Positions 42,305 to 48,598 of a stretch of 64,000 nt of DNA are shown here, in pieces. The stretch covers positions 1,423 through 65,422 of the forward strand of contig JBBFLA010000017.1 in the NCBI GenBank assembly GCA_037481795.1. The letters are read 5' to 3'. Position numbers and translations under genes: made by a program. The stretch's first letter is position 1, and every line of letters begins with the position of its first letter. The DNA comes from Spirochaetota bacterium (GTDB lineage Bacteria; Spirochaetota; UBA4802; UB4802). A model generated the notes under the pieces. It had not been told where the DNA came from. It saw nothing but the letters and a program-made list of their open reading frames with translations, and searched no databases.

Positions 42305-42863
42305 AACATCCTCCTGTAAAATTTTTTAAAATCTGTAAACCGTACTCTGATGCGTACGATTCCGGGTGAAACTGTACACCCCACACAAATTTAGTTTTAT
42401 GTTTTAAAGCCATGATTTCACCATCGCTTGAATGGGCTTCAATGCTAAGGCAGTTGGGGAAATTTATTTTACTTACCACCAGTGAATGATAACGGACAGC
42501 GGTAAATCGTTGTGGTATATTGTGGAAAAGATTTCCACCATAGTGCTCAATAATATCAGTTTTACCGTGCATGATTTTTTTTGCATGAACTATCGCTCCA
42601 CCATAAACATATCCAATTGCCTGCATACCTAAGCACACGCCCAGGATGGGTATATCATCAATGTTTTTAATAACAGTAACGGTAATGCCTGAATGCTGTG
42701 GGGACGAAGGGCCAGGTGATAAAATGATACCAATGTACTTGTGGAAATTAATTGAATCAAAATTGGTATCGTTACGGTAAACATCCACCGCGTGTCCCAA
42801 TATGCGCATGTACTCAACTAAGTTATAGGTAAACGAGTCGTAGTTATCAATTATACAGAACAT
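42270..42863 (-). CDS. trpG: Anthranilate synthase component II (glutamine amidotransferase)
   Basis: IDNYDSFTYNL, SPGP, GVCLG, RYHSL, QFHPES; TGATG coupling to trpE. Confidence 0.95.
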   Translation of the reverse strand: MFCIIDNYDSFTYNLVEYMRILGHAVDVYRNDTNFDSINFHKYIGIILSPGPSSPQHSGITVTVIKNIDDIPILGVCLGMQAIGYVYGGAIVHAKKIMHGKTDIIEHYGGNLFHNIPQRFTAVRYHSLVVSKINFPNCLSIEAHSSDGEIMALKHKTKFVWGVQFHPESYASEYGLQILKNFTGGCYEYRTTYNTNN

Positions 42864-44356
42864 CACACGATCTCCTTTAATGATGTAGTAACTTTTGCAA
42901 AAGGCAGGCTTACTGAAAGCGCTTTAAGTTTATTTACTATTTCATTAAATTCATTTTCCGGGATACTATCGTACACAATGCCAGCACCCGCCTGTAAAAA
43001 TGATCCTTGCGGTGAAAAAACTGCCGTGCGAATAGTAATACAGGTATCCATTGTGTTATTGAATCCAATGTAGCCAACACACCCAGCGTAAATGCCACGC
43101 GGATGTGGTTCAAGCTGGTCAATAATCTCAATAGCACGAACTTTTGGTGCACCACTCACTGTGCCAGCGGGAAAGCTGTGGCGCAGCACATCGCTTAAAC
43201 GTATGCCATCGTTGAGTGTGGCAGTAACATTTGAAACCAAATGAATAACGTGTGAATAATCTTCCGGTTGCATGAACTGTCCTACCTGCACGCTTCCCGG
43301 CCTTGCAATGATGCTTAAATCATTGCGTGCTAAATCAACAAGCATCAGGTGCTCTGCGCGTTCCTTTTCGTTATTGAGCAAAAGTTCCTTATTTTTAATA
43401 TTTTGACTTTTTGTTTTTCCCTGGGCGATAGTTCCTGCAATTGGCCGCAATGTGGCAATATTGTCCTGTACTTTAACATGAATCTCAGGCGAGCTACCGG
43501 CAACAGTAAGATCCCCATGTTTCATATAAAACATATATGGTGATGGGTTGACCTGCCTCAGTTTAAGATAAAACCGGTAAGGGTCAACAGGTTCATTGAT
43601 GTATGCCCGCATACTTAACACGATCTGTAACGCCTCACCATCTTCAATTAAGGTTTTTGCCTGTGATACTGAATCCATGAATGTTTCCGGCAAGCTGCTG
43701 AAATTCAGATTTATTGATTCAGAGTATGCAGGAAGGTACGGTAACGAAGTTGAGGAGAGAGCAGTGATAATGTTGTCTTCGTAGGAATCAAGGCGTTGTA
43801 TTGCCTGATTGTAGGCTGATTCAATGCTGCCTTCATCAGTGTAGATACATGTGGCAATATAGTAGGTGTTATACTTATTGTCGTAGCAGATGAAGTCATC
43901 AATGTGGTGCAGTGCCATTAAAGGATGCAGTGTGTCTTCATGTATGGGCTGGCGCAGGTGCCCGGTGTAGTTAACCAGATCATACGAAAAATAACCTGAC
44001 AACCCGCCATTGTATGAACCAAAGCGGTTAAAAGACGGTGAGCAATAGCGGGCTATGTATCTGTCAATAAAATCAAATGGATCGACACAGGGGATTGTTG
44101 TTGTTTTAGAGCTATCGTTTATAATAATATATGGTGGGGTAAAGTATAGCGTTTGTACAGGATTAAAACCTAAAAATGAAAATCTGCTTTGCTTTTTGTT
44201 TTGTCTGGCGCTTTCAAAGAAGATACAGTCACCGTTATTAATAAATGATTTTAATAGAAGCAGTAAACCCGGATGGGAAATATTAAGCTGTTTATAGATA
44301 GGGATGCGGTTATATGTGCTGCTTAAATTTTTGCATTGTTGTAATGTTGGATACAT
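42863..44356 (-). CDS. trpE: Anthranilate synthase component I
   Basis: NPSPYM, GSSPE, PIAGT, EHLMLVDLARND, FPAGTVSGAPK, QAGAGIV; AAGGAG RBS. Confidence 0.97.
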   Translation of the reverse strand: MYPTLQQCKNLSSTYNRIPIYKQLNISHPGLLLLLKSFINNGDCIFFESARQNKKQSRFSFLGFNPVQTLYFTPPYIIINDSSKTTTIPCVDPFDFIDRYIARYCSPSFNRFGSYNGGLSGYFSYDLVNYTGHLRQPIHEDTLHPLMALHHIDDFICYDNKYNTYYIATCIYTDEGSIESAYNQAIQRLDSYEDNIITALSSTSLPYLPAYSESINLNFSSLPETFMDSVSQAKTLIEDGEALQIVLSMRAYINEPVDPYRFYLKLRQVNPSPYMFYMKHGDLTVAGSSPEIHVKVQDNIATLRPIAGTIAQGKTKSQNIKNKELLLNNEKERAEHLMLVDLARNDLSIIARPGSVQVGQFMQPEDYSHVIHLVSNVTATLNDGIRLSDVLRHSFPAGTVSGAPKVRAIEIIDQLEPHPRGIYAGCVGYIGFNNTMDTCITIRTAVFSPQGSFLQAGAGIVYDSIPENEFNEIVNKLKALSVSLPFAKVTTSLKEIV

Positions 44357-44379
44357 TGTCTTACTCCTTGAATTAAAAT

Positions 44380-44412
44380 AAAAAAGCCGTGGATTCTGGT
44401 TAAACCCACGGC
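44380..44412 (-). terminator. Second (distal) trp attenuator terminator
   Basis: Minus strand GCCGTGGGTT...AATCCACGGC followed by TTTTTT. Confidence 0.8.
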
Positions 44413-44425
44413 CTATAGTGTGCTT

Positions 44426-44463
44426 AAAAAAAAGCCGTGGGTTTGATGTCCACCCACGGCTTT
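44426..44463 (-). terminator. First trp attenuator terminator
   Basis: Minus strand AAAGCCGTGGGT-GGACATCAA-ACCCACGGCTTTTTTTT. Confidence 0.85.
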
Positions 44464-44492
44464 GCCATTTTCATTTATACAATAATAGCCCT

Positions 44493-44564
44493 TCAGGTGG
44501 ACATCACGTTTGTCCACCACCACCAGCTATTATTAATTGCAAATGTTAATAATGTAATCTTCAT
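44493..44564 (-). CDS. trpL: trp operon leader peptide
   Basis: MKITLLTFAINNSWWWWTNVMST: four consecutive TGG codons, followed by attenuator hairpins upstream of trpE. Confidence 0.9.
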   Translation of the reverse strand: MKITLLTFAINNSWWWWTNVMST

Positions 44565-44643
44565 TGCCGTTTTACATTGACTGCCTTTAAAATTATATCG
44601 TTTTATGACATAAAAACTAAGAATAAAAAATGTCAACAATTTT

Positions 44644-44805
44644 TTATTTTTCAATCTTTACATCATCTTTTTGATGTTTATCTATGCTCTGTTCCACAGG
44701 GCATGATTGCGATAGTCAGGTCCGTATTCCAAGCTTTGGAAATACATAAATATTCAATGCAAACCACAGTGCCATAAGAATCAAAAACCAGATAGCTTCT
44801 TTCAT
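44644..44805 (-). CDS. Candidate 53-aa membrane-anchored selenoprotein (U30-x4-C35)
   Basis: MKEAIWFLILMALWFALNIYVFPKLGIRT-TGA-LSQSCPVEQSIDKHQKDDVKIEK; TGA at 44716-44718; SECIS-like hairpin 11 nt downstream; AAGGTG RBS. Confidence 0.65.
44684..44704 (-). promoter_or_regulatory. Candidate bacterial SECIS for TGA 44716-44718
   Basis: AUGC-C-CUG[UGGAA]CAG-A-GCAU stem-loop. Confidence 0.6.
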
Positions 44806-44823
44806 ACCTGCACCTTTTACCAT

Positions 44824-45129
44824 TTAACCACAGGATGAACCTGTATCAACCATAAAACCAGCACCATACGGTGTGTCCACAAAATCTATAGTAACATTTG
44901 TACCTGCATCCATAAATCGTGCAATATCGCTGTCATAGATTACCGGTATTTCGTTTGCAATTATAACAGTATCTTTAGTATTTTCTGACTCATCCAGAGC
45001 CAGACCCAAACGGGGACCACCTCATCCAATGCCGGCAAAAACCAAACGAAGTCCTGGATGCTTAAAATCAACATCTTTAGCAGCTTCTATAATTTTTTGT
45101 TTAGCCGAATCTGTAATAGTTATGCTCAT
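44824..45129 (-). CDS. HesB/IscA-like selenoprotein (Sec36)
   Basis: MSITITDSAKQKI...GLRLVFAGIG-TGA-GGPRLGLALDES...GSSCG; TGA (45022-45024) lies at the HesB GxCG Cys position. The ORF track shows only the part after the TGA. Confidence 0.88.
44984..45004 (-). promoter_or_regulatory. Bacterial SECIS for the HesB-like gene
   Basis: UCUGGCUC[UGGAU]GAGUCAGA: 8-bp stem with one G-U pair, 17 nt after the UGA. Confidence 0.75.
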
Positions 45130-45394
45130 AATTGTACCATGTTTAATATTTAAGATACTAATAAAATACTAATAATTTTAAAAAATTTCAAGAATTTTTT
45201 ATAGTATTTACAATATGCTAAATTGACAGCATCTTTAAGCCGTTTAACTGGTTTTTCAAAACTACTGTAAATTTTATTTTTTCCCATTTTTTAAATGTAA
45301 AATTTCCTCTTTCTATATTGGTTGAAAAACTGATTAAAATTTACAATAAGTTACTACACTACCATGTATTAATATCCTGTATTATTAAAATTAA

Positions 45395-45423
45395 TTGACA
45401 CTACTACATTATACGCGTATCTT
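45395..45423 (+). promoter_or_regulatory. Sigma70-type promoter of the MNT-HEPN pair
   Basis: TTGACA-17 nt-TATCTT. Confidence 0.55.
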
Positions 45424-45457: not shown

Positions 45458-45781
45458 ATGTTACCAATAGAAAAAGAGGTTCTTGAGACAATTTCTGCTA
45501 TTCTTAAAAATAAATTTGGTAGCAGGGTTGTCGGGATATATGCATTTGGTTCGCGCGTTCGAGGGGATTTTAGTTTCGATTCGGATTTTGATGTTTTGAT
45601 TGTGGTAGATAATAAAACACCTGAAGTAGAACGTGAGATAATCTCAATTATTGTTGATGAAGAAATGAAATATAATCTTTCATTTTCTCCTTTGATAAAA
45701 GATGCAACATCCTTTGAATATGAAAAGCTTTATCATAGCCCTTTTTATGAAAACGTTGTCAAAGAAGGTATTAAATTATGA
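45458..45781 (+). CDS. Minimal nucleotidyltransferase (MNT) antitoxin
   Basis: FGSRVRGD...SDFDVLIV (GSx10DxD). Confidence 0.9.
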   Translation: MLPIEKEVLETISAILKNKFGSRVVGIYAFGSRVRGDFSFDSDFDVLIVVDNKTPEVEREIISIIVDEEMKYNLSFSPLIKDATSFEYEKLYHSPFYENVVKEGIKL

Positions 45782-46182
45782 CATTAAATGCAGATGAAAA
45801 AAAGACGTTGAGTGATATCCGAATGCAAAAAGCACTGGAATTTCTTGATGATGCCAAAATTAACTTAGATAATAAACGGTATAGAACCTCAGTGAATAGA
45901 AGTTACTATGCTGCTTTGAATGCCTTACGTTCATTATTAATTCTTGATGGAGCAAATCCAGAATCACATGATGGAGTTGTAACTATGATAAGTTTACGAT
46001 TTATAAAAACAGGTGTATTGCCAGTAGATATAGTTAAGAATTTTAAGATTCTCTTATCACGAAGGACAGATGTTGATTATGGCGATTTTGATAACATTAA
46101 TGAAGATGATGCAAAGGAATCGTATACAATTGCTTCATCAATTATTGAAACAGTAAATTATACACGGCAAAAGCTTGTATAA
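45778..46182 (+). CDS. HEPN domain protein (partner of MNT)
   Basis: NRSYYA, SHDGV, RRTDVDY; ATGA overlap with the MNT gene. Confidence 0.9.
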   Translation: MTLNADEKKTLSDIRMQKALEFLDDAKINLDNKRYRTSVNRSYYAALNALRSLLILDGANPESHDGVVTMISLRFIKTGVLPVDIVKNFKILLSRRTDVDYGDFDNINEDDAKESYTIASSIIETVNYTRQKLV

Positions 46183-46222: not shown

Positions 46223-48598
46223 CTAATACACTATATCCAGCACTTCCTCAAAATAGCTTACAAACCGCGCATCAATCCCTTTTTTAATGTGTTCAGGCAA
46301 CTCATCAAAGTCTTTTTTGTTTTCAGCCGGGTAAATGATTGTTTTTACCTTAGCTCGTTTTGCTGCAAGGGTCTTTTCTTTTACTCCGCCAATGGGAAGC
46401 ACTCTTCCGGTAATGGTAAGCTCACCGGTCATTGCCACACTTTTTTTTATGGGTTTGTTTTTGGCAAGTGAGTACAGCGCCGTTGCCATGGTTATACCGG
46501 CTGATGGACCATCCTTTGGTGTGGCTCCTGCAGGCACATGCAGATGTATAAAATGTTTTTCAAAGAAATCGGGGTCAATGCCAAACTGCTTAACTTTGGA
46601 GCGAATATATGAATAGGCAATCTCTGTTGATTCCTTCATAACATTGCCAAGCTGTCCTGTTTGAGTAAATCCTTTTGTTTTTGATGGAATGGCAGTTGCT
46701 TCAATATACAGCGTTGCACCACCCAGGCTTGTCCAGGCAAGTCCCATAACAACTCCTGGAATTGGTTTTTTATACAGTGATTCATCGGTAAAGCGAGGTT
46801 TGCCCAAAAACTCTTCTAAATTTTGAGTTGTGACAGTAACTGTTGATGTTGTCCCTTCAATAATTTGTCGGGTAGCTTTTCGCATAATCTTTTTTATGTT
46901 ATTTTCCAGACTTCGGACACCAGCTTCACGTGCATATCCGTCTATGATATTTTTCAGGGATGCTGTATCTATCTTAACTTCGTTTTTATACAGTCCATGC
47001 TCTTTCAGTTGTTTGGGTATCAGGTATCGCTTTGCTATCTCTAATTTTTCTTCCAGTATATAGCCTGAAAGATGCATAATCTCCATACGGTCCATCAAAG
47101 GCAGGGGTATGGTGTCTAATTGATTTGCGGTTGCAATGAAAAGGATATTGGATAAATCATAGCGTACATCTAAATAATGATCAAGGAACTGAGAATTCTG
47201 CTCAGGGTCAAGTACTTCCAGTAATGCTGATGCAGGATCGCCCTGAAAGCTTGCTCCTATTTTATCTATCTCATCAAGCATGATAACGGGGTTTGATGTT
47301 TCCACCACTTTAAGGCTCTGGATAATCTTTCCAGGCATGGCACCAATGTAGGTCCGTCGGTGCCCTTTGATTTCAGCTTCATCGCGCATGCCACCAAGTG
47401 AAAAGCGATAAAATTTTCGGTTCAATGCAGCGGCAACTGATTTACCAATGGATGTTTTACCAACACCGGGAGGCCCAACAAAACAAATTATTGAACCGGT
47501 AATACTGCCCTTCTTTTTGCCAGCACTGATAAATTCTAAAATTCTATCTTTAATATCCTGGAGCCCATAGTGATCGCGGTCCAGAATTTTTTTTGCTTTA
47601 TGAATGTCATAGTTGTCCTGCGAATAAATTCCCCATGGCAGTGAAGTAAGCCAGTCTAAATAATTTCGGCTTACACCATATTCGGCTGAATGCGGCTCAA
47701 GTACTTTTAATTTTTCTAATTCTTCGTTAAAACGCTTTAATGCTTCTTCACTTAACTTAAGTTTTTTGACACGCTCTTCAAACTTTTCAATTTCAGAAGT
47801 TTTTTCGTCTTTTTCAAGTCCAAGCTCTTTTTTGATTTCTTTAAGCTGTTCTCGTAAAAAGAATTCCTTTTGATTTTTGGCAATACGTTCTTCAATTTGC
47901 TGTGAAATCTTTTTCTGTAATTTTGATAATTCTAGTTCTTTCTTTAAAAGTAAAAGTACCTTTTCTACACGCGCTTTAACATCAAATGTTTCAAGAATTT
48001 CCTGCACCTCTGCAGGTTCGGCTGAAGTGAGGGATGCAACAAAATCAGCTAATTTACCAGGGTCTTCTAAGCTAAAGCGGTTTAAGAAAAGTTTTAACTC
48101 TTCCTGAAATAATGAGTTTGATTTTATTAGCTCTTTTACAGACGAAAGGATAGCAGCCGAGTAGGCTTTCATCTCGTCGGTTGGCTCAAACTCAGGTTCA
48201 TAGTAATGGTCCACCTTCCAGCGAATCACTGGTTGCTCAGTCATAACCTGTACCAGGGTAAAGCGCTTCAATGCATTTACCATTACCTGTATGGTGTTTT
48301 CGTCGATAGGAGCTATCTTCAATACCTTGATGGTAACTCCAACCTTATAAAGGTCTTCAGATGTAACCATGCCTTCACGCTGATTCTGGATTAACACAAC
48401 GCCGCCAATTTTATGGTCGGATTCAGCAATGGCGCGTGCGGTGGCAAGCATGGTTTCACCGGTAAGCACCAGTGGTACCATCATGCCGGGGAATATAGGC
48501 CTGTGGGATATGGGTATAATGGGTATAATTTCGGGCAAAATTTCAGACGGCAGTATTAGGTGTTTTGACTCAACAACATGATTTGAATCATCAGACAT
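46223..48598 (-). CDS. lon: ATP-dependent Lon protease
   Basis: GPPGVGKTS, GHRRTYIGAMPG, LDEIDK, PKDGPSAG catalytic Ser. Confidence 0.98.
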   Translation of the reverse strand: MSDDSNHVVESKHLILPSEILPEIIPIIPISHRPIFPGMMVPLVLTGETMLATARAIAESDHKIGGVVLIQNQREGMVTSEDLYKVGVTIKVLKIAPIDENTIQVMVNALKRFTLVQVMTEQPVIRWKVDHYYEPEFEPTDEMKAYSAAILSSVKELIKSNSLFQEELKLFLNRFSLEDPGKLADFVASLTSAEPAEVQEILETFDVKARVEKVLLLLKKELELSKLQKKISQQIEERIAKNQKEFFLREQLKEIKKELGLEKDEKTSEIEKFEERVKKLKLSEEALKRFNEELEKLKVLEPHSAEYGVSRNYLDWLTSLPWGIYSQDNYDIHKAKKILDRDHYGLQDIKDRILEFISAGKKKGSITGSIICFVGPPGVGKTSIGKSVAAALNRKFYRFSLGGMRDEAEIKGHRRTYIGAMPGKIIQSLKVVETSNPVIMLDEIDKIGASFQGDPASALLEVLDPEQNSQFLDHYLDVRYDLSNILFIATANQLDTIPLPLMDRMEIMHLSGYILEEKLEIAKRYLIPKQLKEHGLYKNEVKIDTASLKNIIDGYAREAGVRSLENNIKKIMRKATRQIIEGTTSTVTVTTQNLEEFLGKPRFTDESLYKKPIPGVVMGLAWTSLGGATLYIEATAIPSKTKGFTQTGQLGNVMKESTEIAYSYIRSKVKQFGIDPDFFEKHFIHLHVPAGATPKDGPSAGITMATALYSLAKNKPIKKSVAMTGELTITGRVLPIGGVKEKTLAAKRAKVKTIIYPAENKKDFDELPEHIKKGIDARFVSYFEEVLDIVY

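Follow-up and report, generated by a model that had tools for sequence, protein, structure and literature searches.

A predicted 53-residue membrane selenoprotein with a Sec-x4-Cys pair, encoded behind a HesB-like selenoprotein gene in a Spirochaetota bacterium

Is an in-frame TGA codon in a very short bacterial reading frame the end of a small hydrophobic peptide, or is it the site at which selenocysteine (Sec; U) is inserted into a longer protein? This question is raised by a locus on contig JBBFLA010000017.1 of a Spirochaetota bacterium (assembly GCA_037481795.1), of which a stretch of 64,000 nucleotides (nt; positions 1,423 to 65,422 of the contig), in the following referred to as the window, was analyzed. 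We suggest, with a probability of roughly 0.85, that this locus is a genuine gene for a predicted 53-residue single-pass membrane selenoprotein, which would represent a widespread and unannotated bacterial family. More than 100 homologous loci share the same architecture, and the feature as a whole therefore lies far beyond chance. The elements of the gene, including a hairpin that resembles a selenocysteine insertion sequence (SECIS), are as follows.

44644..44805, minus strand: coding sequence of the small predicted selenoprotein, 53 residues and a TAA stop codon, with the TGA read as Sec
44811..44816, minus strand: Shine-Dalgarno-like sequence AAGGTG, 5 nt before the ATG
44740..44796, minus strand: predicted transmembrane helix, residues 4-22, with the conserved W14 and N18
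44718..44716, minus strand: in-frame TGA, codon 30, read as Sec on the basis of homolog comparison and Sec machinery
44701..44703, minus strand: codon of Cys35, partner of Sec30 in the U-x4-C pair, invariant in alignments of 29 sequences and of 36 Cys forms
44680..44707, minus strand: SECIS-like hairpin inside the coding sequence, from an RNAfold prediction on the window's own sequence
44704..44684, minus strand: core stem of the hairpin, starting with AUGC 11 nt after the UGA
44695..44693, minus strand: loop of the sequence GGA, with a U-A closing pair and a start 20 nt after the UGA

The small gene lies directly behind a gene for a HesB-like selenoprotein. The TAA stop codon of the latter (44826..44824) is followed by 18 nt that include the AAGGTG sequence (44816..44811), and then by the ATG of the small gene (44805..44803), whose frame runs through the TGA at 44716-44718 to a terminal TAA (44646..44644). 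The initial annotation of the window had proposed exactly this layout, and each of its coordinates agrees with our reading. It had further stated that the gene is entirely missed by the track of open reading frames (ORFs); the 53-residue gene is indeed absent from it, but the list made with translation table 11 does contain a shortened ORF of 35 amino acids (44716..44823). The read-through product, MKEAIWFLILMALWFALNIYVFPKLGIRT-U-LSQSCPVEQSIDKHQKDDVKIEK, comprises one N-terminal transmembrane helix, the segment LPKLGIRT-U-LSQSC, and a charged tail. This order of elements recurs as the signature of the family: a short acidic N-terminus, one transmembrane helix with a conserved Trp and Asn, the helix-breaking segment L-P-(K/R)-x-G-x-x-T, Sec or Cys, four residues, an invariant Cys, and a tail of about 15-40 residues that is charged and little conserved.

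The read-through protein was searched against 61 genomes of the same order, with matches at E<=1e-4 taken as significant. Among the 38 matches obtained, 36 carry a single TGA at the aligned position, two carry a Cys codon, and none carries TAA or TAG; the TGA form is present in 34 of the 61 genomes. The same small gene was found at the extracted loci of related genomes: at 27 of 30 loci, its start codon precedes the TGA or Cys codon by exactly 29 codons, GGAGG- or AAGGAG-like sequences precede these starts, and the reading frame stays open for 11-40 codons past the TGA in 30 of 30. The two loci of the order that lack the stop codon (L023 and L034) have Cys at position 30. When 29 non-identical sequences were aligned, N18, P23, G26, T29, U30 and C35 proved invariant and W14 nearly so, and the consensus in the order reads M..(hydrophobic)..W..LN.W.LPK.G..T-U-M-S-x-S-C-S-L-E. 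A Cys follows the Sec position at a distance of five residues in all 29 relatives (six residues in three rows with a one-residue insertion). The in-frame TGA is aligned with the Cys of homologs and is bordered by conserved residues on both sides, with T29 and C35 invariant. In a sample of the phylum, the gene was detected in 35 of 301 genomes, and all 35 fall into five families of the window's own order; hence, the distribution of the gene across bacteria is patchy.

Were the TGA an ordinary stop codon, the gene would specify a 29-residue membrane peptide, and the conserved part downstream would have to be explained as an independent RNA element or as another small ORF. Gene callers do yield such 29-residue products (P0104 and others), but homologs carry Cys at exactly the same codon and continue in frame, none of the 38 significant related matches has TAA or TAG there, the frame is open past the TGA in each of the 30 related loci, and the in-frame Cys five residues further on is invariant.

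Insertion of Sec requires a dedicated machinery, and in the host genome its genes are found in one compact cluster on contig C16, with every component scoring above the curated cut-offs.

G000:C16:22895-27285: selD-tRNA-Sec-selA-selB cluster of the host genome

The selD gene (367 bits) itself carries an in-frame TGA; the gene for tRNA-Sec (selC), at 24099-24188 of C16, scores 69.5 bits and thus lies above the Rfam gathering score, and selA and selB reach 484 and 312 bits, respectively. All four genes, selA, selB, selC and selD, which the initial annotation had expected in the host, are therefore present. TGA ends 10 of the 36 long ORFs in the window, and therefore the standard genetic code is in use, without a general read-through of TGA; an alternative code in which TGA stands for Trp was rejected on the same ground. 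Among the 61 related genomes, selB was found above the curated cut-off in 47, and it was so found in 33 of the 34 genomes that possess the TGA form (E<=1e-4); the exception, G006, is an assembly of 280 contigs in which a selA fragment is cut by the end of its contig. Of the 14 genomes that lack selB above the cut-off, 12 show no match of the small protein at E<=1e-4; the other two are G006 and G039, the latter a genome in which neither selA nor an above-cut-off selB was found and in which both the small protein and its HesB-like neighbor contain Cys. TGA forms thus follow the Sec machinery, and Cys forms occur where that machinery was not found, which again argues against an ordinary stop codon. 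The earlier expectations that homologs would carry TGA or a Cys codon at position 30, that conservation would extend past it, and that the gene would keep company with the Sec machinery are borne out by these counts (36 TGA, two Cys and no TAA or TAG forms; Cys35 invariant in the 29 relatives and in the 36 Cys forms described below; selB in 33 of 34 carriers of the TGA form, and no significant match in 12 of the 14 genomes in which selB did not reach the cut-off).

How far does the family extend beyond the order? One genome per prokaryotic species was scanned with a degenerate DNA pattern that spanned N18 to C35 and allowed TGA, TGC or TGT at position 30. The pattern matched at least 119 stretches; 80 loci are among the matches listed, and these comprise 77 family members and three chance matches (L050, L101, L105). 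Within the 77 listed members (L110 has the same sequence as L038), 75 carry TGA and two carry Cys (L059, L102), a proportion that is not an unbiased Sec:Cys ratio because the scan pattern fixed several residues. According to their record titles, the listed members span at least six phyla, including Desulfobacterota, Planctomycetota, Acidobacteriota and Thermodesulfobacteriota. Carriers occur in the Desulfuromonadales and Geobacter, Syntrophobacteraceae, Syntrophaceae, Desulfomonile and Thermodesulfobacteria, and furthermore in Planctomycetota (Pirellulaceae and others, Kuenenia), Acidobacteriota, KSB1, Anaerolineales and Cytophagia. Two of them are cultured, Pelotalea chapellei DSM 13688 (L055) and Thermodesulfatator autotrophicus S606 (L080), and the selenoprotein prediction is therefore directly testable.

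At the protein level, a profile search that covered 1.84 billion protein representatives returned 877 protein clusters at E<=1e-3, 45 of them at E<=1e-10. From the best 150 matches, 50 were retrieved, and most of these are proteins of 47-90 residues with the same architecture and a Cys at position 30. Six of the 50 (P0002, P0009, P0044, P0110, P0135, P0150) have W at the Sec position, evidently because gene calling on their contigs used a code in which TGA means Trp; long spurious N-terminal extensions are also present in some of the W-form database proteins. One retrieved sequence, P0104, is a truncation of 29 residues, with five further 29-residue matches in the profile list, and one is an unrelated repeat protein. 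In an alignment of 36 natural Cys forms, P23, G26, T29, C30 and C35 are invariant. A protein search with the single read-through sequence returned one near-identical JGI protein with W at the TGA; it found no longer homologs, a result that bears only weakly on the existence of fusions. When the ESM Atlas was queried with the Cys form P0012, the nearest cluster (score 0.89) was an unnamed 56-residue 'hypothetical protein' from Planctomycetota without a Pfam family, which may serve as a lead only.

The third component expected of a bacterial selenoprotein gene is a stem-loop shortly after the UGA with a G in its apical loop, and such a structure is found across 101 distinct Sec forms: the main hairpin loop predicted by RNAfold lies 18-24 nt after the UGA in 98 of them, and a G occurs within the first three loop bases in 97%. 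The loop of the published bacterial SECIS model is reportedly placed 16-37 nt from the UGA. The sequences of the stems vary but stay complementary (UUCGC/GCGAA, CUCUC/GAGAG, AUCGA/UCGAU, GCGCGG/CCGCGC, CUUCC/GGAAG), and the peptide encoded after Cys35 is unconserved outside the window's order. A perfect stem of at least 6 base pairs with its loop at 18-24 nt is present in 60% of the real sequences, versus 4.7% of 2020 dinucleotide shuffles and 16% of controls that consist of the 45 nt upstream. In a gap-free, codon-anchored alignment, columns 18-22 pair with columns 28-32 in 65.7% of cells, versus 47.4 +/- 1.9% in shuffles (0 of 500 reach the observed value) and 38.6-48.1% with slid partners. 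The covariation score for this register is 0.489 versus 0.243, and 144 cells are changed on both sides, versus 86.7 +/- 6.1 in shuffles. Covariation with column 32 (CG 48, UA 23, UG 7) is also seen for column 18, which is the wobble position in the codon of Cys35. A second register, columns 21-26 with 30-35, is weak (51.0% of cells paired versus 42.4% in shuffles), and a slide by -1 performs equally.

No stable hairpin was found at the site in the distant Cys forms L059 and L102 (z = +0.4 and -0.6), and it is kept in both Cys forms inside the order (L023, L034), which suggests that these two were recently converted from Sec to Cys. A scan of the window with Rfam at gathering thresholds gave no match, and hence no catalogued RNA family covers the hairpin. 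That the hairpin of the window, taken alone, is not significant would suit an ordinary stop codon; a separate RNA element is opposed by the lack of a T-run behind the hairpin, and the first site on the strand that was called as terminator-like is located at 44414..44384. On the entire evidence, we regard termination at the TGA as very improbable.

RNA-library contigs that cover a related locus were encountered in activated-sludge metatranscriptomes. The sequencing runs X15, X16, X17 and X2 were examined, the remaining runs holding small shares; in three runs, 44300..45129 is covered by a relative's contig of 987-1167 nt with a mean word depth of 369-426. The covered span runs from the start codon of the HesB-like gene across the small ORF and reaches into the region ahead of trpE. 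This contig is roughly 90% identical to the window (82 differing positions and six gaps over 830 nt), and no change affects 44716-44718 among the 40 differences shown, with 50 more not shown. The X17 contig stops at 45129 and continues into adapter-like letters, and RNA cover is absent at 45188..45400. Such contigs are no proof of a single transcript, and the three runs may share one campaign.

Several points count against reading the locus as a selenoprotein gene and need to be carefully considered. The hairpin of the window is weak by itself, with -9.1 kcal/mol and z = -1.5, and an equally good fold is reached by 15 of 200 shuffles; the claim of the initial annotation that a stem begins 11 nt past the TGA is thereby correct in its position, but the support for it is comparative. 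Even over the 101 homologs, the mean z of the hairpin is only -1.3. The register 18-22/28-32 was picked after scanning the same data in which it was then evaluated, and RNAalifold found no consensus pairs on the ungapped 101-sequence alignment, a result that we attribute to the hairpin occupying two or three registers. The scan pattern fixed Cys35 and several other residues, so that both the 75:2 proportion and the invariance in the scan set are biased, and the position 24 residues of many Cys forms lie outside the pattern. Finally, contigs from RNA libraries may include DNA and say nothing about translation. In our view, these points do not outweigh the type of stop codon, the conservation on its flanks, the host machinery, and the co-occurrence of the two, all of which support the earlier proposal that the TGA encodes Sec. 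We therefore consider it very probable that the UGA at codon 30 is recoded to Sec through SelB, tRNA-Sec and the hairpin within the coding sequence, a reading to which we lend the same weight as to the gene itself.

On which side of the membrane would the Sec/Cys pair reside? Over 101 homologs, the five N-terminal residues contain on average 0.43 Lys plus Arg and 0.82 Asp plus Glu, the 12-residue core of the helix is uncharged, and residues 18-29 contain on average 1.94 Lys plus Arg and 0.07 Asp plus Glu. The positive-inside rule for membrane proteins is well established, and when it is applied to this charge asymmetry, the part that harbors Sec30 and Cys35 is expected on the cytoplasmic side, within a few residues of the membrane surface. 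A location of the pair at the cytoplasmic face, next to the membrane, is therefore the likely one as judged from the distribution of charges.

For this pair, the initial annotation had suggested a role either in redox reactions or in metal binding. Clues to the function of the protein come from fusions and neighboring genes. Two of the retrieved homologs, P0078 (121.8 bits) and P0127 (105.7 bits), are fused through a linker of 25-35 residues to a thioredoxin domain that scores above the thioredoxin equivalog cut-off. At 76 loci outside the window's order, to which all of the following counts of the wider context refer, ArsR/SmtB regulators that also score for BigR were found in 11; rhodanese, YgaP-like and MBL-rhodanese (Blh-like) genes in 11 and TauE exporters in eight, mostly in Planctomycetota; CcdA in seven and TlpA-like redoxins likewise in seven; thioredoxin in six; and NikR in five. 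FmdB-type zinc ribbons (TIGR02605/PF09723) adjoin the small gene on the same strand in 12; they lie downstream in L044, L052, L058, L070, L072, L106, L117 and L121, and upstream in L062, L078, L087 and L100. In some organisms, FmdB itself counts among the listed selenoprotein families. A CpxR/CpxA-like two-component pair is found directly upstream in five loci.

The most economical reading of these associations, which we put forward as a tentative one, is that the protein provides a membrane-tethered selenol/thiol pair that is recycled by thioredoxin and is used in thiol or reactive-sulfur stress. In such a scheme, the Sec/Cys pair would cycle between the selenol/thiol state and a selenenylsulfide, thioredoxin would reduce the latter, and the small protein would act as a membrane-tethered redox or sulfane-sulfur acceptor site. 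Arguing against this proposal are the small number of thioredoxin fusions (only two among the 50 retrieved sequences), the heterogeneity of the neighborhoods, in which 30 of the 76 loci lack any labelled neighbor, and a mechanism that is derived from gene context and chemistry only.

The same neighborhoods also bear on the idea that Sec and Cys, instead of acting as a redox catalyst, form a binding site for a metal or metalloid (Fe-S, Hg, As, Ni or Cu) at the membrane. ArsR/SmtB regulators (at the 11 loci mentioned above and at three related loci), NikR (five), FmdB (12) and CpxA/heavy-metal-like kinases (five) would all be at home beside such a site, and so would the HesB-like Fe-S scaffold selenoprotein, which is the neighbor at 27 of 29 loci within the window's order; furthermore, the conserved N18 and W14 in the helix could drive oligomerization, and in a variant of this idea an Asn-mediated dimer might supply four ligands and hand metal to or from partners. 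However, the ArsR neighbors also score for the sulfite/persulfide sensor BigR, in Planctomycetota they accompany rhodanese, MBL and TauE genes and thus point to sulfur rather than metal, thioredoxin fusions suit redox cycling better, and no metal transporter recurs among the neighbors. Hence, we deem a metal site unlikely.

A different role is suggested by the five Desulfuromonadales-type loci in which the gene directly follows the CpxR/CpxA-like pair on the same strand. The selenoprotein might be a small regulatory subunit whose helix docks on a sensor kinase, a transporter or some other larger membrane protein, and whose Sec/Cys pair reports the redox state. Conservation peaks in and after the helix (W14, L17, N18, L22, P23, G26), where a contact surface could be situated, and such a role would resemble the way in which the cysteines of the 47-residue protein MgrB couple PhoQ to the redox state of the periplasm. 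But the kinase context is limited to these five of the 76 loci, and no single membrane partner recurs across phyla. We hold a regulatory subunit to be rather improbable, and return to the thioredoxin-recycled pair as the reading that we prefer, with the reservations given.

Within the window's own order, the context is far more uniform and is dominated by the gene directly upstream.

44824..45129, minus strand: gene of the HesB-like selenoprotein, which precedes the small gene in a shared operon and has an in-frame TGA of its own at 45024..45022

The TGA of this gene, which goes unmentioned in the initial annotation, sits in the motif GIG-U-GGP; the protein scores 49.5 bits against NF038090 and 43.5 bits against TIGR01911, both below the cut-offs, and 35.5 bits against PF01521, above the cut-off. 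In 27 of 29 loci of the order, a HesB-like selenoprotein gene on the same strand directly precedes the small gene, with a gap of 9-24 nt in 21 of 22 measured loci and of 180 nt in L027; none of the 76 loci outside the order shows this association. In the order, the small gene is probably co-transcribed with that of the HesB-like selenoprotein and probably works with it. A complex prediction with the Cys forms of both proteins from L023 scored 0.00 and gave no answer, and hence is evidence neither way; a protein search with the Cys form of the HesB-like protein returned three matches.

Further upstream, a gene for Lon precedes the HesB-like gene in 17 related loci and ends about 200-750 nt before it. 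In the window, a nucleotidyltransferase (PF01909) and a HEPN (PF05168) gene with a 4-nt overlap (45458-46182, plus strand) lie between Lon (48598..46223, minus strand) and the HesB-like gene. This pair resembles a toxin-antitoxin module and looks inserted, since Lon precedes the HesB-like gene in the 17 related loci. Downstream of the small gene, the window contains a 23-codon leader ORF, MKITLLTFAINNSWWWWTNVMST (44493-44564, minus strand), with four consecutive Trp codons, followed by hairpins with T-runs (44384-44470; one called at 44414..44384) just upstream of trpE (44356..42863), trpG and trpD. The leader ORF and hairpins look like a classical trp attenuator, for which Rfam gave no match at gathering thresholds. 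The possibility that the small gene itself is the trp leader was rejected, given that the trp context occurs only in the window's genus and that the separate four-Trp leader ORF lies downstream.

Has this family been described before? No family of Pfam or NCBIfam matched the protein of the window; none of eight unfused Cys forms scored above a curated cut-off of either library, and their only matches were weak ones at E>=0.005; the source names of the Cys forms are 'hypothetical protein'. The family tables of two reviews (PMC9312934, 87 rows; PMC13188914, 119 families/subfamilies) contain no small membrane protein with a U-x4-C motif. Almost every row of these tables is tied to a Pfam or NCBIfam model; a few rows without a model or under cd/PTHR identifiers lie outside our scan. 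The accessible portions of the deep-Sep (PMC12013277), Olavius (PMC1976440), Fujita et al. (PMC1914089), BSepDB (PMC13326102) and Haft and Gwadz (bioRxiv 2022.07.06.499078) publications do not mention such a protein. Full-text literature searches, in which supplementary listings were outside the scope and the families of Haft and Tolstoy (2025) were judged via NCBIfam models and the review table, found no description either. The family is thus likely to be absent from the published catalogues, and the suggestion of the initial annotation that it may be undescribed is in line with the lack of a Pfam or NCBIfam match and of a similar row in the two review catalogues, within the literature searched.

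Bacterial selenoprotein catalogues list about 110-120 families (PMC13188914, PMC13326102). They were built mostly on proteins already predicted by gene callers, and the present family has escaped these programs because a 29-codon ORF that ends at a UGA falls below most length limits. Despite being missed, the family is common in anaerobes of sediment, sludge and groundwater. It would add a small membrane-anchored type to the bacterial selenoproteome, offers a compact example of a SECIS within the coding sequence with rich covariation, and links the use of selenium to thioredoxin, HesB-like and rhodanese/TauE sulfur-stress gene sets.

Among known systems, TsoA, the 'LULAXC motif selenoprotein' (NCBIfam NF045695; PMC13188914, Table 1), comes closest in its motif. 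In both proteins, Sec stands shortly before Cys in a short hydrophobic motif (L-U-L-A-x-C in TsoA, T-U-L/M-S-x-x-C in the small protein); TsoA is associated with the ArsR-type regulator TsoR and the rhodanese/DsbD-like selenoprotein TsoB, and some neighbors of the small family score weakly on the TsoR and TsoB models. However, the spacing is U-x3-C in TsoA and U-x4-C in the small protein, and the TsoA model spans 144 positions; this model (cut-off 170 bits) gave no match to the small protein at E<=1 and none in the host genome at E<=10. The HesB-like selenoprotein (TIGR01911/NF038090) shares with the small protein the operon, the status of a selenoprotein, and the joint conversion to Cys in G039, but it has a soluble fold of about 100 residues (PF01521) and no sequence relation to it. 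MgrB and the FeoB-associated Cys-rich membrane proteins are likewise of about 50 residues and combine a helix at the N-terminus with functional cysteines that lie just beyond the membrane, whereas the small protein has no Pfam or NCBIfam match; none of these families is known to include a selenoprotein.

The closest analogue for the possible working of the small protein is provided by the eukaryotic selenoproteins K and S (SELENOK, SELENOS). These are small proteins that cross the membrane once, by a single helix; their short N-terminus lies outside, and Sec is located in a cytosolic tail that is charged and disordered. In SELENOS, Sec and a nearby Cys form a selenenylsulfide that is reduced by thioredoxin. 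The likeness is one of architecture only: a Pfam scan of the small protein, SELENOK and SELENOS families included, was empty at E<=1, the Sec of the small protein lies seven residues after the helix break and not at the penultimate C-terminal positions, and its gene has a bacterial in-frame hairpin rather than a SECIS in the 3' untranslated region, and a bacterial host. We raise, as a more doubtful proposition than the ones above that we favor, that this family may be a bacterial membrane-tethered one, analogous and not homologous to SELENOK and SELENOS, in which a Thr-Sec-x4-Cys site at the inner face of the membrane would be recycled by thioredoxin and could intercept membrane-proximal reactive sulfur species or peroxides, or relay a signal to partners; it would depend almost wholly on Sec in anaerobes from at least six phyla, and would escape present-day annotation.

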